Shown in pieces: positions 10,318-29,697 of a stretch of 30,878 nt of DNA. Each line of letters opens with the position of its first letter. The stretch's first letter is position 1. The position numbers and the translations under genes were made by a program. Below the pieces are notes generated by a model that was given only the letters and a program-made list of their open reading frames with translations, had not been told where the DNA came from and searched no databases. The stretch comes from a virus: UHGV virus genome UHGV-1533542; one strand, 5' to 3'.

Positions 10318-12792
10318 TTATTGCGGAGTGACATCCTGTGGTCGCCACCAGTATGTCTGGTTAAACTCTTTCTTCGAACGTTGCTCCATTTTACGCAAAT
10401 AGCCTGGTGAAAAATACTCCTGCATCTGGTTAAAGATCATGTGATCGAGAGCCGCCTTTAAGTACCAGAGATTCGCACCTGGCATCAAACCTTTCCCCAG
10501 CTTCACCAGATCACCACCAGTCTGCTCACTCTTCCCTTCCACAGCATTTAACGGTATGCCCTGAGCAATCTTCACTACGTCATCAACCAGACCAGCTACC
10601 GGGCCAAGCATCGACGCCAGCGCGCCGCTTCCGTACCTAGTGTGATCTGACAATAAAAAGTCACCGTAAAGGCCAAGACCACCACCTTTCAGTAGAGCAC
10701 CAAGCCAAAATTTAGCAGCATCTTCTCCTGTCATCTCGCGAGGATTACGACCAGACGCAAGGTCGTTAAGTTGCTGCGACAAAGCGCCAAGAATGGTCGT
10801 ACTGGCAATAAACGTCGCAATATATGCCGCACGCCCACCAGCAGACGGCATACCCATAGCGCGTGACCAGTGACGCATAACTACCGAGATAGGGAACGAT
10901 TTAAACAGGAAAACACTTCTCGTTAATTCACCTTTCCATGTTCCACGCTGAATACCAGAACCGGTTATCAGTTGCTCACGTGCTCCCGGTGTAATAACAG
11001 CCATATCAACTTCTTCAGTTACGGCACCGAGAAGTTTACGCATTGCCTCAAATTTCACGCGTTCAGGCTCACCAAGATGTTTAACTGCTGAATCAGGGAT
11101 ACGCATAATGCTTTCCGGTGTCAGCATCGTATTATTGCCGTTCCCCCAGTCCTCCTGTTGCGCCAGCTTCCATACGCTCCAGTCTGTTTCAGTAATCCCT
11201 TTGCTTTTCAGGATACGAAAATCAGAGTCATCGAGGCTACGAAGGTCTGGTGTCCGTGACACTACCTCTCCCAGGCTTCCCATCATTGTTACGCCATAGG
11301 CGCGCTTGTGCGCATCTGACCATGCTGTAAGCCCACTGGCACGCATTACCGCCGTTGCCGCCCAACGAGACACAGACGGCCCCATATTATCCATTGCCCA
11401 GCGGTTAACACTGCCAAGTAGAGATTCCATCGCCAGACCAGCGCGGCGCGCCCGCGCAAGCTCAGTACGGTTCGTTGGGTCCATAGCTTCAAGCTGGTTG
11501 CGGAATAACTGGTTCATTGGAAGGTTGGTCACCTTCGCAGACAGATACATGGTTCCAAGATCAGAGAACGATGACAGCAACGCGGATCCTAGTCGGCTGG
11601 CAACCAGCCAGTTGCGGATATTGTCAGACCAGCGCGCGATGTGCGGATTCGCTACAGGCTGTGTCTTTCCGGAAATAAAGTTGTACAGATTCTCTGTGTT
11701 GTTCGCCAGCCGCTCGACTTTACCGGTTTTACTCGGGTTAGCTGTTGCCGTTTCTGCCTTCACCTGATCAAGAAGAGAGCGGAAAACATGATCGGGGTTT
11801 GGGCCATATGTTTCCACCAGTGCAATATCTTTACTGATACCTTCCAGGTGACCGACCATGATTTCCCATAGAGAGCGATCGCCATAAAGTTGCTGATATT
11901 GCAGATAGGAATCTGCATCTTTGAAATGTATCTGTCGTGATGCATTACCCCGGTTAGCACGTGCGCCGGAAATTCGCATTCCGGTATCAGTAAGCTTATT
12001 CAGCCCACCAGTAGCGATCGTGTTATAAGCCTCTCCAAGAAATGCAGACAACTCGGCATCGTTCATCAGTTGTCCATCGACTCGGGTATAATATTTGCGA
12101 TCCAGCTTACCTATAACATCGCTAACCCACTTATCCTTTGATACCGCCCCAACCTTTTCCATAGAATGATGTTGAGGGATCCCCCAGTTTTCGAGATAGC
12201 CAATGTCCCCACCAGCATCATTAAACCGGCGGCGCAGTAGCTCTGTCACTTCTCTCCACGCCTTAGCACCTTTTCTTGCTTTAGCATTGCCAGTATTTTG
12301 CCCTCGCATTTCATATACCAGGTCACGCACGCCAGCTTCATCTTCAAACAGGCCAAAAAAGCGAGGATCAACTGCTTCAAATGCCTCCTGCAATTGACTC
12401 AATGCATAATCACGAGTGGCTTTTGTTCTGGATTCAACAGAGAGGAAATTCGATTTACCGTCTGCATTAAAAGCAATAGTACGGTTAAGAGCGCCAAGTT
12501 TCCCATCAGCCCCTTGATAGCTATTGATAAATTTATCCAATCTCTGACGTGCGGCTATAGTGAGAGCCACACGACGTTTCTTTAATGCCGCTTCTCGCTG
12601 TAATTCTTCAGATGCCAATTGTGCTGCACGATACAACCGTTCTGATTCGGAAAGTTGTCGCCACGACATCGGATCATCACGAGCAATGGAGCGCATATTT
12701 CGATAAATGCGGTCTTCAATGTTCTGTATTTCTCGCGCCGTTAACGTGCGCTGCGCCGCCTGCTGGACCGCTTGTATACATTCCTGTCTCAT
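10318..12792 (-). CDS. large internal virion / ejection protein (824 aa)
   Basis: Long ORF in the virion operon; position equivalent to internal core/ejection proteins of podoviruses; function by position only. Confidence 0.75.
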   Translation of the reverse strand: MRQECIQAVQQAAQRTLTAREIQNIEDRIYRNMRSIARDDPMSWRQLSESERLYRAAQLASEELQREAALKKRRVALTIAARQRLDKFINSYQGADGKLGALNRTIAFNADGKSNFLSVESRTKATRDYALSQLQEAFEAVDPRFFGLFEDEAGVRDLVYEMRGQNTGNAKARKGAKAWREVTELLRRRFNDAGGDIGYLENWGIPQHHSMEKVGAVSKDKWVSDVIGKLDRKYYTRVDGQLMNDAELSAFLGEAYNTIATGGLNKLTDTGMRISGARANRGNASRQIHFKDADSYLQYQQLYGDRSLWEIMVGHLEGISKDIALVETYGPNPDHVFRSLLDQVKAETATANPSKTGKVERLANNTENLYNFISGKTQPVANPHIARWSDNIRNWLVASRLGSALLSSFSDLGTMYLSAKVTNLPMNQLFRNQLEAMDPTNRTELARARRAGLAMESLLGSVNRWAMDNMGPSVSRWAATAVMRASGLTAWSDAHKRAYGVTMMGSLGEVVSRTPDLRSLDDSDFRILKSKGITETDWSVWKLAQQEDWGNGNNTMLTPESIMRIPDSAVKHLGEPERVKFEAMRKLLGAVTEEVDMAVITPGAREQLITGSGIQRGTWKGELTRSVFLFKSFPISVVMRHWSRAMGMPSAGGRAAYIATFIASTTILGALSQQLNDLASGRNPREMTGEDAAKFWLGALLKGGGLGLYGDFLLSDHTRYGSGALASMLGPVAGLVDDVVKIAQGIPLNAVEGKSEQTGGDLVKLGKGLMPGANLWYLKAALDHMIFNQMQEYFSPGYLRKMEQRSKKEFNQTYWWRPQDVTPQ

Positions 12793-12797
12793 TTAAT

Positions 12798-14600
12798 TTA
12801 ACCTCTCAAGAAACACGCCACAGCAACATCAAACAGGCTGGAATCCTGTATTGCCTGCTCACTTTCCCTGTTCGCTTCATCCAGTACTTCACGCGCACTG
12901 CGCGATTGTGGATTACCATCATCATCCAGCACGGTGATTATCATGTCCGGAGATTCAAGCAGCGAGTCTTCAGCTATACGCAGATCAATATCTCCTGCCG
13001 GATCTGCCATCATTTTTTGTTCTGTCTGTTGCAATATCTTACCGGGCTCAAAAGGAGCTACTTCGTCTGGCGTCCTGACCTCTGCTGTTTTATAGAATGA
13101 AACAGCCTGAGCATTAAGTTCACTTTCAGCCTGCTGTCTCCGTGCCAGTTCTGCTCGAGCTTCAAAAAACTGACCGCCAGGCTCATGCGGTGCCAACGCG
13201 TTACGGGAAAATTCCAGGCGTTCTTGTGCCTGCCGGATTCGTTGGTCAATATCGCGAATTCTGGCCTGTTTATCTGATCGAGCACGAGACAAAGCTTTAC
13301 CGCTACCAGTTGGCTCTTCTGCAAGAATTTGTGCGCGCTGTTCAGTGAGATTGTCGATAATTCGTTGGCTATTAGCGATTTCAGACTGGTAAACCTGTCT
13401 ATCGCCACGCGACAAAAGCTGCGCGGCCTGTTCTTCAAGCAACCGATTTTCTATAGCGCGCGCCGTTTTTCCATCATCTACAGATGACAGAGCCTCATTA
13501 ACTGCCTGAGAAAGCAGACTCTTGTGCCCAGGGATTTCACTGAAAGATGCAGACTCAACAATGCTGGCAACGTCTACAGGTCTCCCCTGGCTAACATCAG
13601 ACATGGCTTTTCGCAGAGCCTGAATGTGAGAATTACGCGAAAGCACGTTGATCGGCACGCCAGGAGCAATATCAATTTCAGCATGATGAGCGGCATTCGC
13701 CGCCAGTGCAGCATCGATATCAACTGGTGAAAAATTTGGTGCGCTTGTAGACTCGCCGCGAGAGTTAATAAATCTGCCGACACCACCAAACGCCACCCCA
13801 AGAACAGCATCAATAGCAATTGCCTGTCGATCCAACACATCATACTGGTTAGCCATTTCGCTATAGCCACCATCACGAAGCGTTTTTGCAGTAAGCCCAC
13901 GCTGTGCCATACCGAACGCAATATTTGTACCTGCGGCATAGGCAATATCTGGCGTTGCACGTACTGCTGTTGCTGCGGCGCGTCGCACTGAACTCTCACC
14001 CGTCCGCGCAAGCTGAGCCGCCACACCTTCCGCCAGCGCACCACCAGCACGTAACCCGAGGCTCATAGGGATCAGTGTTCCGGCACCAGCAGTAATGCCC
14101 TGCACTAATCCCGCTTCCTGCGCCGTCCTGAAATCAACACCCTGTGCTATCAGCCGTTCAAACTCAGAAAAACCCTGTAGCGAAGTTACCGCCGCTGCAC
14201 CTCCGACAGGACCACCGAGCGTTGTACCGACAACAGCCTGCCCGCCCATATCGAACAACCCATAAAGAACCTGCCCGGCGGTTCCGGTTGTCGCGGCATC
14301 AGGCGTCAGCCGCTTAACCTGCTGCTCTGCTAGTTTTCTCTGCTCGGCAATGTATGAAACTGAAGTATCATTGAGCGAGGTGTTTTCGTTAATAAACTGA
14401 GCAATCGGGGATACGATTTTATCCATCCCAGCCCATAGCAACTGATCTGGCTTTGCCACCAGCCCGGAGTACAAACCAGACAATGCCGCTCCTACAGCAT
14501 TGTCGAAAAAACCAACATCGCTGTTAAAGCCCGCTGGATTTGATGCTGCTTCGTCAAGTTGCTGATTCTGGTTTACTGGATTAAGGCCAAAGTAACTCAT
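12798..14600 (-). CDS. internal virion / ejection protein (600 aa)
   Basis: ATG overlaps upstream stop (ATGA); Gly/Ala-rich N-terminal part and charged helical C-terminal part. Confidence 0.75.
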   Translation of the reverse strand: MSYFGLNPVNQNQQLDEAASNPAGFNSDVGFFDNAVGAALSGLYSGLVAKPDQLLWAGMDKIVSPIAQFINENTSLNDTSVSYIAEQRKLAEQQVKRLTPDAATTGTAGQVLYGLFDMGGQAVVGTTLGGPVGGAAAVTSLQGFSEFERLIAQGVDFRTAQEAGLVQGITAGAGTLIPMSLGLRAGGALAEGVAAQLARTGESSVRRAAATAVRATPDIAYAAGTNIAFGMAQRGLTAKTLRDGGYSEMANQYDVLDRQAIAIDAVLGVAFGGVGRFINSRGESTSAPNFSPVDIDAALAANAAHHAEIDIAPGVPINVLSRNSHIQALRKAMSDVSQGRPVDVASIVESASFSEIPGHKSLLSQAVNEALSSVDDGKTARAIENRLLEEQAAQLLSRGDRQVYQSEIANSQRIIDNLTEQRAQILAEEPTGSGKALSRARSDKQARIRDIDQRIRQAQERLEFSRNALAPHEPGGQFFEARAELARRQQAESELNAQAVSFYKTAEVRTPDEVAPFEPGKILQQTEQKMMADPAGDIDLRIAEDSLLESPDMIITVLDDDGNPQSRSAREVLDEANRESEQAIQDSSLFDVAVACFLRG

Positions 14601-17110
14601 TGCGGAATATCTCCGGAGAATCTCTGACGCTTCTGTGTCAGATCAAGAACAACAGGAGAACCATCATCTTTCAGCAGATAACCAGTACCAAGTTTCACCA
14701 GGTACTGACTATCGCCGTAACTTTGCAAACCATACTGACCAGGCGGTGTTTTTATCCCGGTGCCGACAACTTGTTCATTCCAAGCCTGATTAACCTGCTT
14801 ATCGAATTGCTCTGCAGACATTCCCCACGGCAAAAGGACATTCCCCATTCCGTTATAGTCATGCACGCCACCTGTAGCTACGTTAACAGCCTGTTTCCAG
14901 ATATCAGTGTCAATTTCGCCTGATATCACGCCTTTTTTCGCCATCACACCAGCGTAATAGTCCTTTGCGATCTCGTATGCCATTGATGCCCCCTGAGCAT
15001 CACCAGCAAATGCATCCTTCACCATGTCAGAAAACTCAAGGCGAAGATCAGCATCTTTAGGCATCGGAATACCTTTCGCATCATCAGTACCTTTACGAGC
15101 CGCCGCGCCAGCAAGAATTGTCTGCGCAGCGGTTTCAGGAGACACGGAAACATCCGGATTAAACCAGTTTTTTTCTGCCAAAATACCACCAGGCTTGTCC
15201 ATCAGTATCCCGGCAACGGCAGCAGATGGAGCGTTGGCACTGATCTGCTGTAGTGCTGACATATACACCTGCCCACCACCAGTGCTCTGCCTGATGGTAT
15301 CGAGATATGCTGCCTGTTGAGAAACTGGAGCATCACGAAAGAAAACACCGATCTGATTGGCCTCGTCTTTGGAAAAGAACGTCAGTGGAGTGCCATATGA
15401 CTTAGCAAGGTCACTGACCTGAGCGGCACGCAAGGCAACGCTATGTCCAAAGTTATCCTTATTGCTCATGTCGATAGGCTTTGCCTGTCCGGAGGCAAGA
15501 GAGAACTGCACAGGATCCGACTGCCGCTGCTTTATCACCTGATTTGCAGCCGAAACAACGTTGTCATAAAGAGCTGCGCGAGACGCATAACCCTCCCCTG
15601 TCTCACCAGTATCCGGGCGTAATTGCTCAACATATGCTGTAATGCTGCTTGTCGGCATGTTGCGGAAAGAGCCTATATACTGTCCGGCGATCTGCGTATT
15701 CTTAAACTCGGTATATCGCAGGTTTCCTTCTCTGACTCCATAAGCTGCAATAAAATCATCCTCACCAGGTGGGTTAGGAAATTCAACGCCACGCATATAC
15801 GCAGCTGTCGCATCGCGAACCTGGCTGTCAATCATCGTTTTATATTCATCCTGCTGCTGCCGACGCAGTTGATCCGCCTGTCGCATAAAACTTGCCTGCG
15901 CCTCAGAAGATGCCGCATCGAATGCTGCATTACCGGTATAGCGTTTGGTGTTGGTTGGAATTGTTGATAAACCAAGTGCTGCACTGACACCAGCAGTTAA
16001 CTGCTGATCACTGTATGGCTGGCTACCGTTCTCATGATGGATAATGGCTGCACAAAGCGCCTTCAGGGTATCAGGATTTGATGCATCGAGAGGCTCATCA
16101 GCAGAAACGCCAAGTTGTTCGCACACTGCTTTGATATACGACATAGTGTCATTTTTATCAGTGGGCGGTGCCCAGCGATTAATTATCTCGCTGACGGTAT
16201 CAATACCCTGCCTATGATACGACATCAGGTTCCGCCCTAATGCACGAATCCCGTGTTCAGGTGTTTCGAATTTAGCAAATCGACCATCATCACCGGTCTG
16301 GCCTACCCACGGATTAGTTTTGCTGTATTCGAGATTTCCTGGGTTATTGTTGCGTATGCCACGGGCACGATCGGAAGAGTCACTATCGGCTACAGCACGG
16401 CGAGCTCCAGCAGCAGTATCACTTAACTCGCCATTACTTTGGATGAATGCGGTCGCATTGTTTGCCGACCACTGGGACAATGCGGCATCAGCAACCTTCT
16501 CTTTAAACTCGATTTTCTTGGCCTGGATTTGCTCGTCGCTCCAGCCATGCGCAATGCCGTAATCCTCAATTTGCTGGAAAGTTTGCTTATTAGCCAATAC
16601 GTATGCGGCGTTGTCGCCATACAATGCTGCGGCATTTTTACCATTGTTCAGCAGCGTAGCCTGAAACTGACCTTCTTCGTAGGCATTTATTTGCCCTATC
16701 TCGTGCCGCCCGGCCTGCGTAGTGAACTGAATACGCTGCTGCTGCGCCTGCTGCATGAAAGCATTACGAGCCTGTTCATCCGGCAGCGACATAGCCAGTT
16801 GTTCGACCTGAGCATCAAACTGCTGCGTATACTCCTGACCTTTTCCAATAGCATTTTTCCCTTTCAGGTTAAGCAAACCTGTTTCAGGGTTATTCAGCAG
16901 ATCGCTGCTTATCTGGCTTAAGCTAAGAGAAGCATCCTGAGCCATAGCAACATTCGCGCGCTGTTTTGCCTGCGCAATAATACCTGCATATTGCTCTGCA
17001 ACATCGCCAAGTACATCACCGACATTTGGTGTCTGAAACGATGAGAATCCCTGCGTCGAAATCCCTCTGCTCTGAACCTGACGGCCCGATGTTGTTGGTA
17101 CAACTGGCAT
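14597..17110 (-). CDS. internal virion / ejection protein (837 aa)
   Basis: Long ORF in the virion operon; contains a conserved-looking NNPGNL segment whose function I cannot assign. Confidence 0.75.
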   Translation of the reverse strand: MPVVPTTSGRQVQSRGISTQGFSSFQTPNVGDVLGDVAEQYAGIIAQAKQRANVAMAQDASLSLSQISSDLLNNPETGLLNLKGKNAIGKGQEYTQQFDAQVEQLAMSLPDEQARNAFMQQAQQQRIQFTTQAGRHEIGQINAYEEGQFQATLLNNGKNAAALYGDNAAYVLANKQTFQQIEDYGIAHGWSDEQIQAKKIEFKEKVADAALSQWSANNATAFIQSNGELSDTAAGARRAVADSDSSDRARGIRNNNPGNLEYSKTNPWVGQTGDDGRFAKFETPEHGIRALGRNLMSYHRQGIDTVSEIINRWAPPTDKNDTMSYIKAVCEQLGVSADEPLDASNPDTLKALCAAIIHHENGSQPYSDQQLTAGVSAALGLSTIPTNTKRYTGNAAFDAASSEAQASFMRQADQLRRQQQDEYKTMIDSQVRDATAAYMRGVEFPNPPGEDDFIAAYGVREGNLRYTEFKNTQIAGQYIGSFRNMPTSSITAYVEQLRPDTGETGEGYASRAALYDNVVSAANQVIKQRQSDPVQFSLASGQAKPIDMSNKDNFGHSVALRAAQVSDLAKSYGTPLTFFSKDEANQIGVFFRDAPVSQQAAYLDTIRQSTGGGQVYMSALQQISANAPSAAVAGILMDKPGGILAEKNWFNPDVSVSPETAAQTILAGAAARKGTDDAKGIPMPKDADLRLEFSDMVKDAFAGDAQGASMAYEIAKDYYAGVMAKKGVISGEIDTDIWKQAVNVATGGVHDYNGMGNVLLPWGMSAEQFDKQVNQAWNEQVVGTGIKTPPGQYGLQSYGDSQYLVKLGTGYLLKDDGSPVVLDLTQKRQRFSGDIPQ

Positions 17111-17122
17111 CTTATTATCCCC

Positions 17123-17662
17123 TTATCGACCGGTTGGAGTGCCAACAGCAGCAGAAATCGGCGCAGCCTTCTGAGAGAACGGGCTCCACGTTCCGCCGCC
17201 CATCTGGTATGCACCGTATGCTTTTAGTGGTGCCGTTAACAAAGTGCTGGTCATCGATGATTTAGCAGCCGACTGAGCAGCAGCCCCCTGTGCCTGAGCA
17301 TTCATTCCCTGAACCTGATACCCATATGCCTCACGCTGAGCATTATTCACTGTCGTTAACGCATCAAGAGTGCCGAACTGAGCATTATCCGCAAAAACGT
17401 CAAGAGCTGTTCCGCTACTTAATTCCGCACCGGTAGCCCCCATAGTGGCCGCCGCAGTGCCTGAGCGTTGACGCATTTCACGACGACGCTGATCCGCTTC
17501 AATATTCCCACGATTGATTGAATCCTGTGCCTGAACTTCAGCAATTTCAGCATTCCGATCAGCTATGGCTGACTGGTATTTTGCCTGCTTGCTCTGGCTG
17601 TACATTGACGCGGCTGTGGATGCCACTGTGACGGCAACCAAAGCGATGGCTGGGTTACACAT
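17123..17662 (-). CDS. virion protein with N-terminal hydrophobic segment (179 aa)
   Basis: ATG overlaps upstream stop (TAATG); N-terminal hydrophobic helix then Ala/Gln-rich region. Confidence 0.7.
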   Translation of the reverse strand: MCNPAIALVAVTVASTAASMYSQSKQAKYQSAIADRNAEIAEVQAQDSINRGNIEADQRRREMRQRSGTAAATMGATGAELSSGTALDVFADNAQFGTLDALTTVNNAQREAYGYQVQGMNAQAQGAAAQSAAKSSMTSTLLTAPLKAYGAYQMGGGTWSPFSQKAAPISAAVGTPTGR

Positions 17663-18126
17663 TATTTTCTCTCCATGTGAAATCTGTGGAAATTAAGACC
17701 AAGAGCACCATAAGGCGCGGCTTCTTCAAGCCTGAATCCAAGCCAGTGCAGCCATGCTTTGGCAACATGGTTTCGCTCGTCGACGTAGTTTTCCAGGCGC
17801 GGATAAACTGCCAGCATCTGCTGCAATACAGGGCGGCAGTGGCGAAGAAATGTCTTCTGATATTTTTCAATACGGCTGGTTCCGACCAGCCATGGCGTAC
17901 CATTGCCACCGATCATTGACGCCGGAGATACACCAAACATGGTTACCAGTTCTCCGTTCGCGAACCCTGACCAGGCCATAGTCGCAGTGCGCAGACCAAC
18001 GCGCAGCGCATCTTCGGTAGTCATCAGCGATACCGCATACAGTTCGTCAATATCAGCCTGACGAACATCCGGCAAAATCATCTGAAGATGCTCTTCGGTA
18101 GCGGGAATAATTCGAACATCGATCAT
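17662..18126 (-). CDS. virion-module protein (154 aa), function unknown
   Basis: ATG overlaps upstream stop (ATGA); translationally coupled within the tail/internal-protein operon. Confidence 0.7.
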   Translation of the reverse strand: MIDVRIIPATEEHLQMILPDVRQADIDELYAVSLMTTEDALRVGLRTATMAWSGFANGELVTMFGVSPASMIGGNGTPWLVGTSRIEKYQKTFLRHCRPVLQQMLAVYPRLENYVDERNHVAKAWLHWLGFRLEEAAPYGALGLNFHRFHMERK

Positions 18127-21525: not shown

Positions 21526-21541
21526 ATACACTCCTGCAATA

Positions 21542-21559
21542 AAGGGGCCGAAGCCCCTT
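21542..21559 (-). terminator. possible intra-operon attenuator hairpin
   Basis: AAGGGGC-CGAA-GCCCCTT stem-loop; on the minus strand followed by TTTATTG; lies between head-proximal genes and downstream genes. Confidence 0.3.
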
Positions 21560-21575
21560 GTCGGATTCGCGAGGC

Positions 21576-21911: not shown

Positions 21912-21921
21912 CGATATCACC

Positions 21922-22359
21922 TTAACCAGTTACTTTTGAGCGGATCGGGTACGGCGTATTGGCATCAACATCCAGACTGATACCCGCAGTGAATTTGCCG
22001 GCCGTTAGTGGGCCAGTTGCGACGGAGTAGTTAACACGCAGATATCGCTGAACACCGGCTGGCACCTTTGCAGAAACAACTCGCTTACCTGCTGTCAGGG
22101 TGGCCTTTGCCAACGCACCACTATCATAAATAGTGGTCCAAGAGCTGTTATTCTCACTCGTCTGCAACTGGATGTTTACAGTTGCCTCACCACTTGCCGT
22201 GGCGGCTTCGTTAACCAGCACCCAAAACTCAAGCGGGTAACCCACACCGATATCGCGACGGTTTCCATCAATTGGACCGAGATCGATTACGTCAGTAGAA
22301 GCCGCGGTATTCGTAACCGCCTGAGCTTCGGAGAACATCAACAGTTTGTCGGTGATCAT
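21922..22359 (-). CDS. possible capsid decoration / minor head protein (145 aa)
   Basis: ATG with SD GGAGAAAGAAG; directly downstream of major capsid gene; Thr/Ala/Gly-rich beta-type sequence; function by position. Confidence 0.6.
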   Translation of the reverse strand: MITDKLLMFSEAQAVTNTAASTDVIDLGPIDGNRRDIGVGYPLEFWVLVNEAATASGEATVNIQLQTSENNSSWTTIYDSGALAKATLTAGKRVVSAKVPAGVQRYLRVNYSVATGPLTAGKFTAGISLDVDANTPYPIRSKVTG

Positions 22360-22410
22360 CTTCTTTCTCCATTAGTGGGTCTGTTACGACCCACAGGTTA
22401 ATAACAGGCG

Positions 22411-23403
22411 TTACACCACGCGGGCTTCTGTTTCCAGAAGCGCATCAGTTTCACGGATTGGTACACCACGGAATGACGTCCACCACTCGCCTTCAGTCTC
22501 TTTTACGCTAATCGCCAGAGATGTTTTCTCCAGAGACTGCAGATCAAGAGCCTGGCCTACAGTGCGGTTCATGTAGAACACCGGGCGACCCATGCCACGG
22601 TTTGGAATGCGATGCAGTGCTTTAACCATCAACTTCGCAATATTTGCGGCAGAGGAAGGTTCTGAAAGATTGCTGACATCGATGTTTGCAATGCGAACAA
22701 CATAACGCCAGTCACGCAGAGCAAGTCCGTTGTCCCATTTGTAATGGGTACGGTAGCCTTCGTACTTGCCGCCATTAGCATCTTCCAGTGTCACCTGGCC
22801 TTTATCTTCCATCTGAATGCCAGCCTTCTGCCCTTTCGGGAAGATGCCATGCACGGTGTTTTCGCCCCACACCACTAACCAGATTGAGGTGTTATCTGTG
22901 CCCGTGCCACCAGCATCAATGATGTTCTGAGCATTACCTGCAGACAGGCTGGAATAGCGGGAGGACAGTCCCATAAACTGCTGAGGGTTAACGCTGGAAT
23001 CACCATAAAACAGCGTCTGCGCCATCTGCTGATTCATCGCTTCAATAAATGCGCGGTCTTCAGACAGGCGGAATTCGGCGGTATTGCCGTTCAGATCAGC
23101 CAGTGACTTATCGACTTCAGCATAGGTTTCCAGCATGCCAACGGAATCGGTTACCTGCACTGTGGTTGATTTGCTTGGCTGTACGCCATAGTTCAGCAAA
23201 CGCCAGGTAGCTGAAGGTAAACCAGAACGAATGGTGGTTCGGTGTCCGGTAGGAAGGTTCCCTTCGACAAAAGGCATATCCTGAAGGATCGGGTTAGTTT
23301 GACCGAGAAGCTCGATAATCTTATCGACTTTCCCGTTTGGATCGACGCGCTTACCCCAGTCAGCCAGCGTTAGCGCAGTTAAGCCTTTAACAGCCATTGT
23401 CAT
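22411..23403 (-). CDS. major capsid protein
   Basis: 330-aa ORF after the scaffold gene with SD GAGAGGAA; size and position typical of HK97-fold major capsid proteins of podoviruses. Confidence 0.85.
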   Translation of the reverse strand: MTMAVKGLTALTLADWGKRVDPNGKVDKIIELLGQTNPILQDMPFVEGNLPTGHRTTIRSGLPSATWRLLNYGVQPSKSTTVQVTDSVGMLETYAEVDKSLADLNGNTAEFRLSEDRAFIEAMNQQMAQTLFYGDSSVNPQQFMGLSSRYSSLSAGNAQNIIDAGGTGTDNTSIWLVVWGENTVHGIFPKGQKAGIQMEDKGQVTLEDANGGKYEGYRTHYKWDNGLALRDWRYVVRIANIDVSNLSEPSSAANIAKLMVKALHRIPNRGMGRPVFYMNRTVGQALDLQSLEKTSLAISVKETEGEWWTSFRGVPIRETDALLETEARVV

Positions 23404-23411
23404 TTCCTCTC

Positions 23412-24107
23412 TTATTTGCCATAGAGCACTTCGGCCGCACTACGCTGGCCTTCATTACCACCGGTGACCATGCCATCTTCAGACATCGCCTTTCCGATTT
23501 TCACGAACGTTTTGACCAGGTCAGGGTGATTACCCAGTCCGGTGGTGTTCAGATATTCTTTGAGTTCAGGTGTCCCGAACTGGTCAAGCGCACGCTGTGC
23601 GGCGCTAAGGTTAGAAATCAACTTGTCGCCACCGATTTCTTTGTCAGCTTTTACATCCGCAGCCCACTGCTCGGTTGTTTTCTGCCAGGCTTCTGCCTGG
23701 CGCTGCTGAACACCTGCCAGAATCTTCGGATAAGCATCAACCAGCTTTTGCGCTTGCTCGTTGGTCAGGTTTAGTTCTCGCGCCACCGGCTCGAATTCCT
23801 TCAACGCTTCTGTATCCAGCTCTACGCCTTCGGCAGCCTGAAACTCGTACTTCTCAGGCGCACCCTCTGGTTTATCGCCGCCCTTTTTTTCATCCTGCTT
23901 ATCGTTTTCAGGCTTTTTGTCATCAGCAGGTTTATCGCCATCAGAAACAGGTTGTGGCTTATCACCTTCCTGTTGTGATGGATCACCAACTGGAGCAGGG
24001 TTATCATCTGCATGCGCTGACGGTTCTGACGCAGCCGGAGCTGCCCCACCATCGACTTGTTGCTCATTGCAAAGACGGCGATACAGCAAACGCTCAAATA
24101 AACTCAT
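23412..24107 (-). CDS. scaffolding protein
   Basis: ATG 24107 with SD AGGAG (ORF opens at GTG 24113); highly acidic, Pro/Asp/Lys/Glu-rich low-complexity N-terminal part and helical C-terminal part; between portal and capsid genes. Confidence 0.75.
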   Translation of the reverse strand: MSLFERLLYRRLCNEQQVDGGAAPAASEPSAHADDNPAPVGDPSQQEGDKPQPVSDGDKPADDKKPENDKQDEKKGGDKPEGAPEKYEFQAAEGVELDTEALKEFEPVARELNLTNEQAQKLVDAYPKILAGVQQRQAEAWQKTTEQWAADVKADKEIGGDKLISNLSAAQRALDQFGTPELKEYLNTTGLGNHPDLVKTFVKIGKAMSEDGMVTGGNEGQRSAAEVLYGK

Positions 24108-24109
24108 GA

Positions 24110-24406
24110 TCACTCCTGTTCACTGGCCTCTTTGGCCATCTTCAAATACTGTTCAGGGCAATGCGCCATAACGCGCTGAAACAGTTCCAGCGCCAGATTG
24201 CGTTGCCCCTCATTAAATGCCATTGCCATAGCATCCATCGGAGAGATAGCGGAAAACACCCGGCCTTTCTCCAGCACCGACCAGACAACGCGACGCCCCT
24301 GTTCACTGCTCATGACAAAGCGAATGTCATCAATTTCACGCTGTGCCATGTCACGTTGCTTACGGGCGTTTTCTTCTTTCAGTTGATCGTCTTCGTAATC
24401 TGTCAT
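24110..24406 (-). CDS. small acidic protein between portal and scaffold genes (98 aa)
   Basis: ORF start overlaps portal stop; function unknown. Confidence 0.55.
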   Translation of the reverse strand: MTDYEDDQLKEENARKQRDMAQREIDDIRFVMSSEQGRRVVWSVLEKGRVFSAISPMDAMAMAFNEGQRNLALELFQRVMAHCPEQYLKMAKEASEQE

Positions 24407-26082
24407 TGTGATTGCCCACCCTGACCACTAACTGCATTCGCCATAGCTGACAACACACTCGGATCCGAAGTTTTAGCTTCGCTTAGCGTCTTGGCCCCCT
24501 GTGCCGCCGCCATCCCCATCGCCATCATTTGTTGCTGCTGTTGTTGCTGTGCCCGTTGCTGGCGAGCCTGCTCAACCTGTTCCTGCGGAACAATGACGGT
24601 TGGAGACACTCCGGACATATCAGCGAATGCATCGATCGCCTGATCAACGTTGAGTTTGTCGAGAGCTTCTGGTTTCGCTTGCGCAAGTTGACCAATGAAG
24701 TTAACCGTGGACGCCAGACTGGACAGGCCGATAGACTTCTGCGCCTGAGCCATGACGGAAATGTATTCGACCTTCAGGGGCATGCCTTCCATCGCGTCAG
24801 GCGGTGGCGGCAGCATGTTTTTGCGCACCATCATCGAGAAAGCGCGGTCAATGAGAGGATTAAGACATTCGTCGTTCAGACGCTCCAGAACCGGCCCCAA
24901 CATCAGAAGTTTTTCTTCTTTCATTTCGATCACCGCTTCAACAGGCATCGAGCGGGTATTGATGTTCTGCAACATCATGAACAGATCGACAAAGTAGGCG
25001 CTGTTAATGATTTGACGAGTGTCCTGAATGTCTGCCACCAAATCTGCTGTACTGGGGTTAACCAGATAAGCAGGCCTGAAGCCATCCTGACCAGTAATCT
25101 GATCGATATACGTGATGTCGCCAGGAAGAAGGGAGGCGCGCTGATTCTTGAGGGAAGTCGGAGCAACCATCGGCGGATTGGTGGCTTTATCAATCAACTG
25201 CGACTTGCGCTTCTGGAGAAGCTGCAATGCCTTAACAGGTCCAAGCGCCAGCATACCCGGGCATGATGATCCATAAACATCTTCGCCGTTAACTTCCCAG
25301 CGCGGAGCCATAATTGGAAACTCATCGAATCCGGACTCACGCAACAACTTGTCGTTATCTCCACCAACCTCGTAATAAACCGATTTGAATGGCTTGTTCT
25401 TGCTATCCAGCTTCGATGTATCGCGGTCAATGTTCGGGTAAACCGAATGCATCACTTCGATCCACTTCTCGTAGGTGCCGCTTTCCCACATGCTTTTTAC
25501 GGATTCGCTGACGTTATTTAGCCCGAACTCCTGAACAAGCTGACGAACAGTCATAGAGAACTTGCGAAAACAGGTGTCAACACTGCCACGAGGTGAGTTA
25601 GCCAGGTAGTAACTGCCTATCGGGAATGGCATTGTGCGAATGATGTCCTCGTCATCCTCCAGCACTGCCATTGCACCAGTGCTGTATGTGCCGAGGCTTC
25701 CGTATAACTGCGGAAGAGACTGGTAGAGATTCGACTTATTGAACATATCGTTCATGCGGTTCTGAACTGCCTCAAGCCACAACTTAACAGGGCCATAATC
25801 CATCATTTCAGGATCTGGCGTAGCCAGGCGAAACCACGGACGCGCGGGGCTTGTGATGCCTGACATCATGCCGCTGGCGAGAGTGCGCGCCGCCATAGTC
25901 CCGGTCGAATCAATAATGCGTGTATTGCGCCGATCGTTACGGTTGGCCTCAGAAGTCAGAAAGCGGGAACCACGCGGGTTGATGTAATCACTCAACTCGC
26001 GCCAGTGCGGCTCGAACGACTGACGCTCGCTTTCAAGTTGTGCGAACTGTTTGTTCAATCGCTCTTTAGTTGTTTCCGCCAT
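24403..26082 (-). CDS. portal (head-to-tail connector) protein, T7 gp8-like
   Basis: 559 aa; Gln/Ala/Met-rich C-terminal tail (QQRAQQQQQQQMMAMGMAAAQGAK) like the T7 gp8 C-terminus as I recall it; located between terminase and scaffold. Confidence 0.88.
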   Translation of the reverse strand: MAETTKERLNKQFAQLESERQSFEPHWRELSDYINPRGSRFLTSEANRNDRRNTRIIDSTGTMAARTLASGMMSGITSPARPWFRLATPDPEMMDYGPVKLWLEAVQNRMNDMFNKSNLYQSLPQLYGSLGTYSTGAMAVLEDDEDIIRTMPFPIGSYYLANSPRGSVDTCFRKFSMTVRQLVQEFGLNNVSESVKSMWESGTYEKWIEVMHSVYPNIDRDTSKLDSKNKPFKSVYYEVGGDNDKLLRESGFDEFPIMAPRWEVNGEDVYGSSCPGMLALGPVKALQLLQKRKSQLIDKATNPPMVAPTSLKNQRASLLPGDITYIDQITGQDGFRPAYLVNPSTADLVADIQDTRQIINSAYFVDLFMMLQNINTRSMPVEAVIEMKEEKLLMLGPVLERLNDECLNPLIDRAFSMMVRKNMLPPPPDAMEGMPLKVEYISVMAQAQKSIGLSSLASTVNFIGQLAQAKPEALDKLNVDQAIDAFADMSGVSPTVIVPQEQVEQARQQRAQQQQQQQMMAMGMAAAQGAKTLSEAKTSDPSVLSAMANAVSGQGGQSQ

Positions 26083-26096
26083 TTCAATGACTCCGG

Positions 26097-26303
26097 TTAC
26101 TGACCAAGCAGCGTTTTACCGCTGGTATTAGCGGTTGATGTGTCGCCCTGAGAACCGGTAAGCAGCGTAGAACTACGACCAGCAGCAGCGCGACGGCGAC
26201 GTGTTTCTTCGTCGCGGGCATCAACAACGGCAGCATCCTGCTCCTGTGGTGCTGCCTGAACTTCTGGTGTTGCAGGCACTGATGGTGAGCTACCCATGCA
26301 CAT
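26097..26303 (-). CDS. small Ala/Pro-rich protein upstream of portal (68 aa)
   Basis: ATG 26303 with SD GGAG 9 nt upstream; stop 14 nt before portal ATG; may be the first gene of the head operon. Confidence 0.4.
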   Translation of the reverse strand: MCMGSSPSVPATPEVQAAPQEQDAAVVDARDEETRRRRAAAGRSSTLLTGSQGDTSTANTSGKTLLGQ

Positions 26304-26393
26304 ATCAATGACTCCGTACGCAATTAAATTATTACCAATTTAACCACATATGATTTATTTATCGTAGATAGTTGACATTTAACGCGCGAATTA

Positions 26394-26408
26394 TTACCTT
26401 TCAGGTAA
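26394..26408. promoter_or_regulatory. ATTACC-N5-GGTAAT dyad, copy c (TTACC-TTTCA-GGTAA)
   Basis: Perfect TTACC-N5-GGTAA 17 bp downstream of a TTGACA hexamer (26372-26377), between the divergent head operon and the plus-strand tRNA unit. Confidence 0.5.
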
Positions 26409-26730
26409 CTAAAGAGTTCATTCCGGTTACTAACCTGACTGGCTTGTCGTTAAATTGAACAGGTGGAGTGAGCTTTTATTTTGAGCAGTACGGCGTATGG
26501 CACATGCGACGATAGCGGTCTGGATACGTTTAAGGGGCACCCTCCCTTGCTCGGGCAAACGAACCAGGTAGCCGGAATGTGCAAGTCGAGCGGTTTTATT
26601 CCGCGCACGGGGATTCACCATCCCGGCGATTCGGTGTGACGCCTCGGAAGAGACGAGGGTACAACGATGAGAGCATTTATGGAGCCGCGACAAAGTGTGG
26701 TGCCTTAACAGGCTAAGTGCTCTCAGCGTT
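26409..26730 (+). other. ~320-nt noncoding, GC-rich region between operator copy c and the tRNA (possible tRNA-precursor leader or sRNA)
   Basis: No ORF longer than about 25 codons with an RBS on the plus strand; several local hairpins; minus-strand ORF 26430-26693 is R/H/C-rich and judged spurious. Confidence 0.2.
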
Positions 26731-26807
26731 GTGGCATTAGCTCAGTTGGACAGAGCAACCGCCTTCTAAGCGGTTGGTCGCAGGTTCGAATCCTGCATGC
26801 CACGCCA
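26731..26807 (+). tRNA. tRNA-Arg (anticodon UCU), phage-encoded
   Basis: Cloverleaf read by eye: acceptor GTGGCAT/ATGCCAC, D-arm GCTC..GAGC, anticodon stem ACCGC/GCGGT with loop CTTCTAA (anticodon TCT), T-arm GCAGG-TTCGAAT-CCTGC, encoded CCA; body close to but distinct from E. coli argU as I recall it. Confidence 0.88.
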
Positions 26808-26970
26808 GAATCACGCCTAAGGACCGTGATGCCAGAAGTTCCAGGGGCTTGGCGGTGATGGTTTCCCTTGAAGGACTATCACCGCCCTTTTTACAGCAGG
26901 ACGCCATTGCGATGACTTCATGCTGTAAACCAGTACAGCCACGGAAGGCATAACTCATTGCTTCCAGTTC

Positions 26971-26994
26971 GCCCGGTTCGCCGGGCATTTTTTT
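26971..26994 (+). terminator. intrinsic terminator downstream of tRNA, abutting the RBS of the 27006 gene
   Basis: GCCCGG-TTCG-CCGGGC followed by ATTTTTTT, which runs into SD AAGGTG; a second weaker hairpin GGCGGTGAT...ATCACCGCC + CTTTTT at about 26851-26890. Confidence 0.6.
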
Positions 26995-27005
26995 AAGGTG
27001 AGATT

Positions 27006-27428
27006 ATGAAGACAATTGATATGTTGGCTAAGTATCTAAATGAATGGCCATTAAAATATTCTCGTATCGTTCAGGCTGAAGACTGCGTTTTTTATGGCGT
27101 TTTTGCTGGTAATGAAATGCATTACGAAGTAATTCAGAGTGAGGGACTGACCGGGTTAACTCTTAGCGAAGACCATGGTACTAGCGTTACGTTCCATGAC
27201 TGGATAACAGCACAACGTTCTGAAATGGAAAAAGGCGATGTGTTTGATATTTCTCGCTCTGTATACGCCAAAGAAAAAAGTGATGATGATTACATGCGCG
27301 AAAACTTATACAACATGAAGTTACAATGCCTGGCTGAAGTGCTTAGTAAAAGATCTTTACTTGATGTGGTTGGTGCTGAGCAGGACGCCAAGGCAATCAA
27401 CGCCGCATTCGATAAAATAACCTTCTAA
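27006..27428 (+). CDS. 140-aa acidic cytoplasmic protein, unknown function (moron between terminase and portal)
   Basis: ATG with SD AAGGTG; no TM or signal peptide; about 24 Asp/Glu vs 15 Lys/Arg; opposite strand to flanking virion genes; followed by palindrome and terminator. Confidence 0.7.
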   Translation: MKTIDMLAKYLNEWPLKYSRIVQAEDCVFYGVFAGNEMHYEVIQSEGLTGLTLSEDHGTSVTFHDWITAQRSEMEKGDVFDISRSVYAKEKSDDDYMRENLYNMKLQCLAEVLSKRSLLDVVGAEQDAKAINAAFDKITF

Positions 27429-27432
27429 CGCA

Positions 27433-27444
27433 GTGACATGTCAC
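27433..27444. repeat. perfect 12-bp palindrome GTGACATGTCAC, copy ii
   Basis: Exact copy 5 bp after the stop at 27428 and 5 bp before terminator hairpin 27449-27476. Confidence 0.8.
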
Positions 27445-27448
27445 AAAC

Positions 27449-27476
27449 AGCCAGCCGATGAGCTGGCTTTGTTTTA
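27449..27476. terminator. intrinsic terminator (bidirectional candidate) between the 140-aa gene and terL
   Basis: Stem AGCCAGC/GCTGGCT with 6-nt loop followed by TTTGTTTTA on the plus strand; A-rich on the other side. Confidence 0.65.
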
Positions 27477-27518
27477 TCCTCATCAGAGGATATCAACGAC
27501 ATTATCCCCACCAGCGGA

Positions 27519-28994
27519 TTAAGCATAGGGATCGTAATCTGTGATGGCCTTGCCTTGCTGGTTCTGCTGACCGGGAATTCGCAGACGCTTCGACACAGGG
27601 AACGCAAACGTCAGCAGTAGCGCATCGCCTTTACCAGGAGAACGCCCAAGCCGCTCCTTGATATCTTCCTTCTGTTCGATAATGATTTTACCGTCCACGC
27701 GAACTTTGTACTCTGCCGCCGACAGGTCGTCCGCTGTTTCCTGGTCATCCAGCATGCCGCCCAGCCTCAGCCATGTCTTGCATGAATTGAACATCTCCCC
27801 ACGCTTGTTGAGCATCTGCGGGTCAGTAGACGCGCCACCGAACGGAACAAGTTGCCATGTACGACCCCATCCGTCACCGATTGACTTCAAACCGGTTCCG
27901 TAACCGAAGTCGATGAACACCGCGTCAGCCTGATACTGGTCTTCAAAGTCAGCGATACGCTTTGCCATAATCAGATCGTCAGTGGTCTTGTTGCCAGTCC
28001 ACAGCACCTTACTGTGCAGCCCCTGCCGCAGGTATATCACAGCGTCATCAACGCCTGAGTATGCCGGGTCAACGCCGATTATCACCGGAGCATGTGCAAC
28101 CTGCGCAGCGGTGACCACCCGTTTCATTGCCTCGTCAGTAAGTCCGGTAGGGATAAACTGCAATTCAGATGCATCCGGGAATATGCCGCGCACACGGATT
28201 TTAACGAAGTCGCTGTCTTCCCCGTAGTCATCAACCCATTTCTGCAACTGCTGTTTGTTGGTGCCTTCCACCGTCCGGCTGTCAATCTGCGCAGTTTTCC
28301 AGCGGTGTTTATATTTGCGGAAACATTCGCGGAAACGTCCGGTATTACGCGTCGGGTTTCCGAACGCCACCCAGATAATCTCAGTGTCTTCGTCCGTTAG
28401 CGCACCCTCGGCAACTTCCCACACCAGATCCGCAATGTTCGACGCTTCATCGAATACCACGATGATGCGTTTGCGCTCGTTGTGTAGTCCGGCGAATGCC
28501 TCAGTGTTGTGCTCAGACCAGGGTATTGCGTCAGCTCGCCACCGCTTGTCGTGTCCAGGATCATTGCTGTACATCGCGGTAGCGGTACAGGTAAACCAGT
28601 CTTTCGTGATAGCAAGGTTCGACCACTTGATAATTTCCGGCCAGGTCTTCGTTCGTAGCTGGTTGTCGGTGTTGGCGGTCACCACAACCTTACAATCCTC
28701 GCAAGTGGACATGCCCCAGTTGATCAGCATTGAGATGAATGCGGATTTACCAATACCGTGACCCGAAGCGCGTGCCAGCATAAGCGGCTGATAGCGCGTC
28801 TCTGGATTCTGCAGGTGATCACGTATCTCTCGGAACGCATCAGCCTGCCACTGACGTGGACCGGTGGCATGTGCCAGTTCAGTCCCATCTTCCCCCCACG
28901 GGAACGCATAGAGGGCATAGCCAAGCGGATCGTGAGTGAACCCTGCAATATCCTCGATTAACTGCTCTTCAGGAGATAACGCTGTATCTGTCAC
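27519..28994 (-). CDS. terminase large subunit
   Basis: 491 aa; Walker A-like SGHGIGKS in N-terminal ATPase part, acidic nuclease-type C-terminal part; GTG start overlaps terS stop; directly upstream of portal module. Confidence 0.92.
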   Translation of the reverse strand: MTDTALSPEEQLIEDIAGFTHDPLGYALYAFPWGEDGTELAHATGPRQWQADAFREIRDHLQNPETRYQPLMLARASGHGIGKSAFISMLINWGMSTCEDCKVVVTANTDNQLRTKTWPEIIKWSNLAITKDWFTCTATAMYSNDPGHDKRWRADAIPWSEHNTEAFAGLHNERKRIIVVFDEASNIADLVWEVAEGALTDEDTEIIWVAFGNPTRNTGRFRECFRKYKHRWKTAQIDSRTVEGTNKQQLQKWVDDYGEDSDFVKIRVRGIFPDASELQFIPTGLTDEAMKRVVTAAQVAHAPVIIGVDPAYSGVDDAVIYLRQGLHSKVLWTGNKTTDDLIMAKRIADFEDQYQADAVFIDFGYGTGLKSIGDGWGRTWQLVPFGGASTDPQMLNKRGEMFNSCKTWLRLGGMLDDQETADDLSAAEYKVRVDGKIIIEQKEDIKERLGRSPGKGDALLLTFAFPVSKRLRIPGQQNQQGKAITDYDPYA

Positions 28995-29587
28995 TGATTA
29001 CCATCCTGACGTTCTTTGAGTCGCTTCCTGGCTGCTGCTATGCGATCAGCAATTGTCACATTCACATTAACATCCAGACGTTCTTTGAATGCGTTGACAT
29101 CAACATGCTTACCAATCAGCTCAAGGTTCTTCACCTTGTCAGGCCATTTAATTTTTTTGAGGATTGTCTCTATTGAATCCTCGTTCATGTTCATGATGGT
29201 CGATGACAGATCAAAGCCACTAAGCGTAGTGCGCCAGATTTTCGGCCACTCACGGATTGGTTTAAGGCTCCCATCGTCGTTGAGGATGTCGATCACGTCC
29301 ATCTGGTCGATCTCCACCAGGCGCATGAGAACGTAATCAGCACTGACACGCATTCGTTTGTTGCGCTCCTCCATCAACTCGGCAATCCGTTTCTGAATGC
29401 GTTCATCGCGCATCATGACACTGGCTTTAACTGCCGCTGTATTTGGGGAGAATCCTGCGTTAATCGCAGCCTGAGTCTGGTTTTCAGGCGTTTTGATGTA
29501 TGACTGGCAATAAGCCTCCTGCATTGCTGTGAGCGGCTTAAATTGCGTTGATTTGCGTTTATAGGTTTTAGGTTCAGCAGGCATCAT
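28991..29587 (-). CDS. terminase small subunit
   Basis: Start set at ATG 29587 (MMPAEPK...) because the TTG-opened extension to 29665 contains an intrinsic terminator; HTH-type segment TAMQEAYCQSYIKTPENQTQAAINAGFS typical of small terminases (memory). Confidence 0.8.
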   Translation of the reverse strand: MMPAEPKTYKRKSTQFKPLTAMQEAYCQSYIKTPENQTQAAINAGFSPNTAAVKASVMMRDERIQKRIAELMEERNKRMRVSADYVLMRLVEIDQMDVIDILNDDGSLKPIREWPKIWRTTLSGFDLSSTIMNMNEDSIETILKKIKWPDKVKNLELIGKHVDVNAFKERLDVNVNVTIADRIAAARKRLKERQDGNQ

Positions 29588-29630
29588 AACCACCGTGGTA
29601 ATTGTTACCGTTGTGGTAATAGTACCATGC

Positions 29631-29656: not shown

Positions 29657-29697
29657 AGTATTCAAAATCCATCAAATTCATCATGCATAATCTACTC

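Follow-up and report, generated by a model that had tools for sequence, protein, structure and literature searches.

Gene Content of the Late Block

The window analyzed here is the whole 30,878-nucleotide stretch of the viral genome UHGV-1533542. From position 29665 down to position 10318, its minus strand carries a continuous run of 17 genes encoding packaging, head, tail, and ejection proteins, after which a small membrane protein gene closes the operon. Judged by homology, this block constitutes the entire operon for packaging, head, tail, and ejection proteins in a temperate podovirus of the phiV10 kind (genus Uetakevirus). It is almost certainly the late gene block of an apparently intact phiV10-like Uetakevirus prophage that is inserted at the 3′ end of guaA in Escherichia coli, encodes a P4-type tyrosine integrase, and is transcribed by the host RNA polymerase. 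The original prediction had described the same gene order and coordinates, with an end at 29587 that corresponds to an alternative ATG start of terS. The genes, in the direction of transcription, are listed below, with lengths in amino acids (aa) and names given by the Prokaryotic Genome Annotation Pipeline (PGAP) where these are informative.

28991-29665, minus strand: terS, terminase small subunit (Pfam PF03592 Terminase_2, E=1.4e-29)
27519-28994, minus strand: terL, terminase large subunit (PHROG 2, E=2e-52)
26097-26303, minus strand: 68-aa epsilon15 gp3-like protein, which opens the portal operon (PHROG 831; 100% identical to phiV10 p06, 88% to epsilon15 gp3)
24403-26082, minus strand: portal of the T7 gp8 family (Pfam PF12236, E=9.4e-188)
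24110-24406, minus strand: Bbp19-like small protein, 98 aa (Pfam PF25181, E=2.8e-17)
23412-24113, minus strand: acidic protein of 231-233 aa between portal and capsid (PHROG 458 "protease", a legacy annotation)
22411-23403, minus strand: major capsid protein of epsilon15 gp7/BPP-1 type (Pfam PF20911, E=2.1e-149)
21922-22359, minus strand: Bbp16-family capsid cement protein (Pfam PF21190, E=5.6e-49; same name from PGAP)
21576-21920, minus strand: epsilon15 gp9-like small protein (PHROG 590; 100% identical to phiV10 p12)
21202-21531, minus strand: gp10-like capsid staple protein (Pfam PF21628, E=1.2e-50; PGAP "capsid staple protein")
20597-21205, minus strand: tail adaptor or tubular protein A, 202 aa, with a predicted T7 gp11 fold (AlphaFold2 model and Foldseek)
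18126-20597, minus strand: tail nozzle or tubular protein B, 823 aa (PDB 8CK1_A "Tail Nozzle" of Carin-1, E=2.7e-217; PHROG 376 tail protein)
17662-18126, minus strand: internal virion protein, epsilon15 gp13-like (PHROG 308 internal virion protein, E=1.8e-62)
17123-17662, minus strand: internal virion/ejection protein of the T7 gp14 family, 179 aa (Pfam PF24072 T7_gp14, E=3e-8; PGAP "virion core protein, T7 gp14 family")
14597-17110, minus strand: internal/ejection protein, 837 aa (PHROG 992 and endolysin/transglycosylase PHROGs)
12798-14600, minus strand: internal virion protein, epsilon15 gp16-like, 600 aa (PHROG 1145; 96.7% identical to phiV10 p19, 32% to epsilon15 gp16)
10318-12792, minus strand: virion structural/ejection protein, epsilon15 gp17-like, 824 aa (PHROG 684; 99% identical to phiV10 p20)
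10168-10308, minus strand: 46-aa membrane protein closing the late operon, with a terminator after it (PGAP coding sequence; PHROG 7892)

The terS gene product is 100% identical to phiV10 p01 and 77% identical to epsilon15 gp1, and its start is ambiguous: 224 aa from a TTG at 29665 (PGAP and phiV10) versus 198 aa from the ATG at 29587 (epsilon15 and Tyrion). The longer version contains a hairpin followed by a T-run (29658-29631) and two operator-like sites, while the shorter one leaves the hairpin and these sites upstream of the gene. TerL is 99% identical to phiV10 p02, and searches of Pfam and of PDB sequences returned no match for it.

Among the head proteins, the portal matches PDB 8CK0 (E=2.3e-179). 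The major capsid protein, which has the HK97 fold, is 99.7% identical to that of phiV10 and 43% identical to that of epsilon15, and in the PDB it matches 3J4U (BPP-1, E=9.5e-129) better than 3J40 (epsilon15 gp7, E=2e-85). PF20911, PF21190, and PF25181 occur together, as in a capsid module of BPP-1/epsilon15 type. BPP-1 and the Burkholderia podoviruses share with this block the families of the major capsid protein (~62% identity to BMP-1 and KL4), the Bbp16 cement protein, and the Bbp19-like protein, but differ in host range and genome backbone; the homology was compared here for the head module only.

In the tail and the core, the nozzle protein is 98.5% identical to phiV10 p15 and similar to LME-1 orf18 (E=2e-15), and a Pfam scan gave no match to PF25675. 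The 837-aa protein contains a lytic transglycosylase-like domain at residues ~245-400, of which residues 248-399 match Gp29 in PDB 9VVP_L (E=3.4e-38) and the endolysin 7Q47 (E=2.3e-17). For the 824-aa protein no match was found in a PDB sequence search, and an NCBIfam scan of ten unassigned proteins gave nothing useful. In the phiV10 record, the counterpart of the 46-aa protein (p21) bears the annotation "integral membrane protein", and a terminator is marked downstream of it.

A phiV10-Like Prophage at the guaA Site

In a megablast search of GenBank phages, phiV10 (NC_007804) matched 94% of the block 10318-29665 with 97.8% DNA identity, and vB_EcoP_PAS61, HEMP4, vB_EcoP_ZX5, and phiv142-3 matched it with 97.4-97.9% identity. 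Together with TL-2011b, these phages have the module genes in the same order, at 97-98% DNA identity. At the protein level (BLASTP), 16 of the 17 module products are 94-100% identical to those of phiV10, the exception being the gp14-like protein (63%). Epsilon15 also has counterparts of all 17 genes in conserved order, with protein identities of 28-94%, so that the syntenic orthologue set epsilon15 gp1-gp17 is present. We calculated BLASTN-based intergenomic similarities in the manner of VIRIDIC, using the whole prophage sequence from E. coli strain 85.0412, and obtained 75.6% for phiV10, 40.9% for epsilon15, and 0.2% for T7. With cut-offs of roughly 70% for a genus and 95% for a species, the element therefore belongs to Uetakevirus but to a species other than phiV10.

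The insertion site could be established directly. Positions 1-2018 of the window are host DNA with yfgG, yfgH, and yfgI, and the junction with the prophage follows. The window is 99.98% identical to strain 85.0412, in which the PGAP annotation gives the order guaA, integrase, early genes, this block, tailspike, lysis genes, and yfgI. Two features of this flank are used below:

2019..2035, minus strand: prophage-chromosome junction with the 17-bp att core ATTGAGTGGGAATGATT, of which a second copy lies at the guaA stop codon in strain 85.0412
4173-6929, minus strand: tailspike, 918 aa (PHROG 1171 tail spike, E=6.5e-300; C-terminal Peptidase_S74 PF13884, E=3e-10)

The proven attP/attB core of phiV10, epsilon15, and ZX5 is identical to ATTGAGTGGGAATGATT (PMC9782041). 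The integrase adjoins guaA in the near-identical genome 85.0412, which is the integration arrangement expected of Uetakevirus, and the whole prophage contains the integrase, both att cores, the repressor, and the replication and lysis genes. An assembly chimera as the source of the likeness to phiV10 was ruled out, because two independent complete genomes have the identical arrangement; the first 4.2 kb of the window are 100% identical in strains 85.0412 and ECE170. The last 91 bases (30788-30878) do not align to strain 85.0412, which points to a variable early-gene segment.

These results bear out the suggestion, made in the original prediction without a firm genus, that the element resembles the epsilon15/phiV10-like temperate podoviruses: the DNA identity, the genus-level similarity of the whole prophage, the att core at both ends, and the integrase beside guaA all agree with it. 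We found no evidence contradicting the identification as phiV10-like. In tblastn searches with the capsid protein and TerL, the matches listed were to Uetakevirus, followed by BPP-1-like podoviruses of Bordetella and Burkholderia and by podoviruses of Pseudomonas, Xanthomonas, and Vibrio; P22-like, lambda-like, and T7-like phages, the first two of which the original prediction had named as hits that would speak against it, were absent from the matches listed for either protein. The element is an already known, ordinary E. coli prophage type. The portal-capsid stretch is carried by 519 of 5426 complete E. coli genomes (at least 80% of the stretch length matched), meaning that about 10% of them share these head genes and that the type is common as well as described.

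The phiV10 group further shares with this prophage the tRNA-Arg gene and antisense open reading frame (ORF) between terL and portal, the guaA site, the operator type, and the arrangement of the LexA box and antirepressor gene. Compared with phiV10, the differences are concentrated in a few places. The gp14-like protein shows 63% identity to phiV10 p17 and 67% to epsilon15 gp14, against 94-100% identity to phiV10 in the remainder of the module, and its gene looks, by this sequence comparison, like a local replacement. The tailspike resembles phiV10 p25 and epsilon15 gp20 only in residues 1-166, the N-terminal head-binding domain (68-72% identity); its receptor-binding part differs from both. 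The oac O-acetyltransferase gene of phiV10 is missing, and the stretch of accessory genes that separates the late operon from the tailspike gene has a YafO-like toxin gene, a different Bro-N antirepressor (Ant) gene, and an ORF of 242 codons (ORF242) that is absent from phiV10.

Epsilon15 (NC_004775) has the same module architecture, with 94% identity for TerL (gp2), 80% for the portal, 85% for the adaptor, and 88% for the nozzle, and it also shares the operator consensus, the attP core, the LexA box before gp19, and the positions of a palindrome described below. It differs in the capsid shell genes (major capsid, cement, gp9, and staple) and in the last two large ejection proteins (28-32% identity); it lacks the tRNA gene and carries O-antigen polymerase conversion genes. 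The capsid-shell block 21202-23403 is 36-43% identical to epsilon15, whereas the flanking portal, adaptor, and nozzle are 80-88% identical. Because the capsid shell has diverged from epsilon15 while its flanks are alike, and because the capsid protein is nearer to that of BPP-1, the sequence comparison shows mosaicism within the head module of a single genus.

Relationship of the Virion Module to T7

BLASTP comparisons of the module proteins with T7 gp1 and gp8-gp19 gave nothing significant, and the relationship to T7 was therefore tested at the level of families and folds. Only two Pfam families are common to both: PF12236, which contains the portal and T7 gp8 (T7 E=2.8e-113), and PF24072, which contains the 179-aa protein and T7 gp14. 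The original prediction had singled out the portal C-terminus as T7-like, and residues 381-555 indeed match the portal of the T7-like cyanophage P-SCSP1u (E=1.9e-5). The adaptor had no match in Pfam, and alignment of a 27-sequence profile with T7 gp11 by hhalign was negative (E=0.93). Its AlphaFold2 model (predicted local distance difference test, pLDDT, 85.8) nevertheless recovered with Foldseek the adaptor of Carin-1 (8CK1_E, E=1.2e-15), LME-1 (E=7e-9), PhiM1, and T7 gp11 (7BOX_M, E=5.6e-6, template modelling score ~0.6). The families of T7 gp10, gp9, gp18, and gp19 (PF21703, PF05396, PF11123, and PF22530) were found by Pfam in none of the window proteins, and BLASTP detected no similarity of the three large proteins to T7 gp15 or gp16.

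The description of the block as a T7-type head module thus has to be divided. It holds for three proteins (portal, adaptor, and gp14-like protein) and for the order in which the genes run from the portal to the ejection proteins, and it does not extend to the capsid, cement, and staple proteins or to TerS and TerL. The T7-like order likewise applies from the portal through the ejection proteins, whereas terS and terL, which here precede the portal, follow the tail fibre gene in T7. The label "scaffold" is reasonable for the 233-aa acidic protein, the N-terminal half of which is rich in Pro, Asp, Glu, and Lys; its position and composition suggest that it is probably the scaffolding protein, while Pfam, NCBIfam, and PDB searches gave no match and its family support is limited to the legacy "protease" PHROG.

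The T7 virion module and the present one are alike in the succession of portal, scaffold position, capsid, adaptor, nozzle, internal proteins, and tail fibre. They also share an internal protein with a peptidoglycan-hydrolase domain; in function, the domain of the 837-aa protein can be compared with the hydrolase domain of T7 gp16. They are unlike in that the capsid, scaffold, and nozzle proteins belong to other Pfam families or to none, without pairwise sequence similarity, and in that the element described here is temperate and has neither a phage RNA polymerase nor phage promoters. In epsilon15 and T7, the internal ejection proteins form a core stack, which has been proposed to build a trans-envelope channel. 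The ejection proteins of epsilon15 are syntenic and gp14/15/16-like, with a T7-like core stack (reviewed in PMC8954989).

A phage can accordingly join a portal, tail, and core of the T7 lineage to a capsid of BPP-1 type, a terminase that is not of T7 type, and a temperate life cycle of lambdoid style that depends on the host polymerase. For epsilon15 and phiV10, this combination has been on record since 2006-2009. The importance of finding it again is small, at the level of a textbook, and the points left over (the palindrome, the regulator encoded before terS, and a pair of differently controlled antirepressors) have a local interest confined to phage regulation.

Regulatory Sites and Transcription

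The original prediction had stated that the window holds no RNA polymerase gene and no T7-type promoter, and both statements are correct. Pfam scans and BLASTP comparisons with T7 gp1 identified no polymerase gene, and the PGAP annotation of the complete prophage lists none. The T7 promoter consensus had no match at up to 3 mismatches, and no multi-copy intergenic repeat of at least 16 nt that might represent another phage promoter motif was found. We also considered an unconventional RNA polymerase among the large internal proteins; this was ruled out, as the DxDxD motif is present in none of them, the 824-aa protein included. The TTGACA hexamers that had been advanced as evidence for sigma-70 promoters do not serve this purpose: there are nine against about 15 expected, only one of them is intergenic, and they are not statistical evidence.

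The regulatory sites are more informative. The operator pattern ATTACC-N5-GGTAAT occurs seven times in the window against 0.79 expected and matches the annotated repressor sites of epsilon15, in line with the operators reported earlier. CTGT-N8-ACAG sites number four against 0.39 expected, and the copy at 7086-7105 has an AT-rich spacer. The LexA box noticed before is this near-consensus site; it lies within the window but outside the region 10318-29587 to which it had been ascribed. The sites and the genes next to them are as follows.

29586-29620: two operator-like sites upstream of terS
26393-26409: operator upstream of the portal operon
7033-7049: operator in the intergenic region between the tailspike and ant genes
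8153-8169 (perfect), 8246-8262, 9287-9303 (operator-like): operators around the Bro-N ant gene
7086-7105, plus strand: LexA box taCTGTATATTTATACAGtt, near-consensus, 20 nt upstream of the small ant gene and conserved in phiV10 and epsilon15
7125-7382, plus strand: SPC32H-type antirepressor (Ant), 85 aa, homologue of epsilon15 gp19 (PDB 5D50_E "Anti-repressor protein", E=4.1e-47)
29706-30044, minus strand: epsilon15 gp49-like "transcriptional regulator", 112 aa, directly upstream of terS (PHROG 536, E=8e-55)

The 85-aa Ant aligns with 5D50_E along nearly its whole length. Antirepressors controlled by LexA are an established induction route in Salmonella prophages, for which SPC32H (Kim and Ryu 2013) is cited (PMC7380047). 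By analogy, the LexA box and the 85-aa Ant gene correspond to the known SOS-Ant-repressor induction switch. The likeness to the Rep-Ant switch of SPC32H consists in a homologous small Ant behind a LexA box; unlike SPC32H, the present prophage has a second, larger Bro-N Ant behind isrK-like and C4-like RNA genes.

The following course of events can be proposed, its logic being transferred from the homologous systems of SPC32H and epsilon15. The host sigma-70 RNA polymerase would transcribe the late block. In the lysogen, the phage repressor would occupy the ATTACC-N5-GGTAAT operators, including those immediately before terS and before the portal operon. After DNA damage, cleavage of LexA would free the small Ant gene, and Ant would in turn inactivate the repressor. 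The 112-aa protein, a candidate late-gene regulator, would then probably allow transcription to pass the terminator before terS. That the prophage lacks an RNA polymerase gene and contains the regulatory sites is directly shown, as are the gene identities, the homologies, and the insertion site; transcription by the host polymerase is supported mainly by elimination together with the regulatory sites.

Alternative Interpretations

Some observations weigh against reading the block as the host-transcribed late genes of an intact phiV10-like prophage. Sigma-70-like matches are not enriched in the module (15 against 21 expected), and the promoter positions remain unlocated. For the 112-aa regulator, searches of Pfam, NCBIfam, and PDB yielded no family, a relaxed Pfam scan with 26 homologues returned only noise, and AlphaFold2 gave a low-confidence model (pLDDT 60.5) that was inadequate for searching by fold. 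In addition, the tailspike gene of strain 85.0412 is flagged by PGAP as a pseudogene ("missing C-terminus") despite its open 918-aa ORF. This last point favors a phiV10-type prophage that is defective, a cryptic remnant from which no infectious particles are produced. The missing O-antigen conversion gene, which sets the element apart from phiV10 and epsilon15, and the inserted accessory genes (the YafO-like toxin gene and ORF242) could be read in the same sense. Yet all 17 module genes are open and full-length, and 16 of them have the 94-100% identity to genes of plaque-forming phages given above, the gp14-like gene again being the exception. The tailspike ORF is uninterrupted and retains its C-terminal chaperone domain, and the integrase, both att cores, and the repressor, replication, and lysis genes are in place. 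We consider a defective remnant unlikely.

Two further readings concern the lineage of the element. A temperate member of the T7 group proper (Autographiviridae-like), with its own single-subunit RNA polymerase encoded outside the window, would account for the portal and the gp14-like protein in the gp8 and gp14 families, for the adaptor with the gp11 fold, and for the T7-like order from portal to ejection proteins. This reading is already refuted by the complete prophage in strain 85.0412, which has no RNA polymerase gene. No protein of the window is like T7 gp1, and neither a T7 promoter nor any repeated promoter motif is present; the T7 Pfam families do not include the capsid, scaffold, nozzle, TerS, or TerL; and the early region has lambdoid-style divergent operons with a repressor. 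Its probability is negligible. It is equally hard to credit that the block comes from a P22-like or lambda-like phage, or is a mosaic with head genes from such a group. Eae, Ead/Ea22, replication protein P, the Bro-N Ant, and the C4 RNA are common to lambdoid, P22, and P1 phages, and TerL is weakly similar to P1 PacB, which its distant relatives in the tblastn matches reach, but phages of these groups are absent from the capsid and terminase matches listed, which begin with Uetakevirus, and the portal is of the PF12236 family, not of P22 or lambda type. For the structural module, this origin is refuted. An apparently intact phiV10-like prophage transcribed by the host polymerase is thus the reading that we retain.

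An Antisense tRNA-ORF Unit between terL and the Portal Operon

Between terL and the portal operon, positions 26372-27468 of the plus strand hold an antisense unit composed of a tRNA gene and an ORF of 140 codons (ORF140) and containing two terminator-like hairpins.

26372..26409, plus strand: TTGACA-17 nt-TACCTT, the sole intergenic TTGACA, overlapping the operator ATTACCTTTCAGGTAAC and pointing toward the tRNA gene and ORF140
26731-26807, plus strand: tRNA-Arg, anticodon UCU (ARAGORN; Rfam tRNA, 73.3 bits; PGAP)
27006-27428, plus strand: ORF140, phiV10 p03 type, 140 aa (PHROG 4846, E=6.5e-92, function unknown; PGAP hypothetical protein)

The tRNA that had been attributed to the module is confirmed as tRNA-Arg(tct), but it lies on the strand opposite to the late operon, as does ORF140. 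A terminator-like hairpin follows the tRNA gene (26851-26886), and ORF140 has its own at 27449-27468. AGA codons are frequent in the tailspike gene (22.9 per 1000) and also in several tail genes. The TTGACA-17-TACCTT sequence at 26372 may function as a promoter. As the operator overlaps this start, with its TTGACA and its -10-like hexamer, the unit would be repressed in the lysogen and would not act as a lysogenic-conversion gene.

A Terminator-Linked Palindrome and the 112-aa Regulator

The perfect 12-bp palindrome GTGACATGTCAC is present in three exact copies in the window.

29698-29709: copy 1, overlapping the TGA stop codon of the regulator gene and 40 nt before the T-run hairpin that precedes terS
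27433-27444: copy 2, between the ORF140 stop codon and its terminator, next to the terL stop codon
10149-10160: copy 3, between the last late gene and the late-operon terminator

Every copy lies at a boundary of the late region and has a stop codon on one side and an intrinsic terminator on the other. Epsilon15, phiV10, Tyrion, and PAT1 each have it at the three syntenic positions, two of these phages with a single-base variant at one site, and the flanking sequences have diverged. The palindrome is unannotated in every record, and none of the papers searched contains the string. The regulator encoded at copy 1 has a basic N-terminus and an invariant C-terminal cysteine cluster, CxxC...CxC...C, in an alignment, and 726 homologues in Enterobacterales. 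The exact palindrome is present at the regulator stop codon in 56 of 58 related viral contigs with full flank, although the loci related by the regulator are all 96-100% identical and thus do not count as independent instances of palindrome and regulator occurring together.

Two explanations of the palindrome were rejected. The phiV10 and Tyrion records open inside it, which could suggest a cos site or genome end; this was discarded because the start of each record was merely set at the last gene's stop codon, with which the palindrome overlaps, or 2 nt beyond it, and because there are three copies. A promoter with GTGACA as -35 was discarded as well, a plausible -10 being present at the terS copy only. 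The palindrome next to three terminators is the only item of the element left unexplained, and the obvious candidates are a binding site of the regulator or a terminator-linked RNA element. We tentatively suggest, as a possibility with the odds against it, that GTGACATGTCAC is an undescribed transcription control element at the late-operon boundaries of Uetakevirus phages, for instance the putative binding site of the 112-aa regulator. If this were true, a novel type of factor linked to terminators would switch late transcription of these T7-like virion modules by the host RNA polymerase.

Tailspike and Accessory Genes

The tailspike region (3943-6929) has a low G+C content (37-42%) and is AGA-rich. 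No O-antigen conversion gene follows the tailspike gene, where phiV10 has oac and epsilon15 its conversion genes.

Between the small ant gene and the end of the late operon lie the second antirepressor module and two accessory ORFs.

8153-9214, plus strand: second antirepressor module, with the operator 8153-8169, an isrK-like RNA (8298-8374), a C4 antisense RNA (8393-8479), and the Bro-N Ant gene (8528-9214)
9517-10062, plus strand: YafO-family toxin-like ORF (Pfam PF13957, E=1.2e-5), between ant and the end of the late operon
7405-8133, minus strand: ORF242, 242 aa (PHROG 6762), AGA-rich

The isrK and C4 antisense RNA assignments are Rfam matches, and the arrangement of the second Ant module is like that of immI of P1/P7. 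The C-terminal domain of the Bro-N Ant is 40% identical to the small LexA-controlled Ant. Upstream of the YafO-like ORF, no obvious antitoxin ORF was seen. The C-terminus of ORF242 has zinc-finger-like matches to endonuclease VII, HNH, and Lar-like PHROGs.

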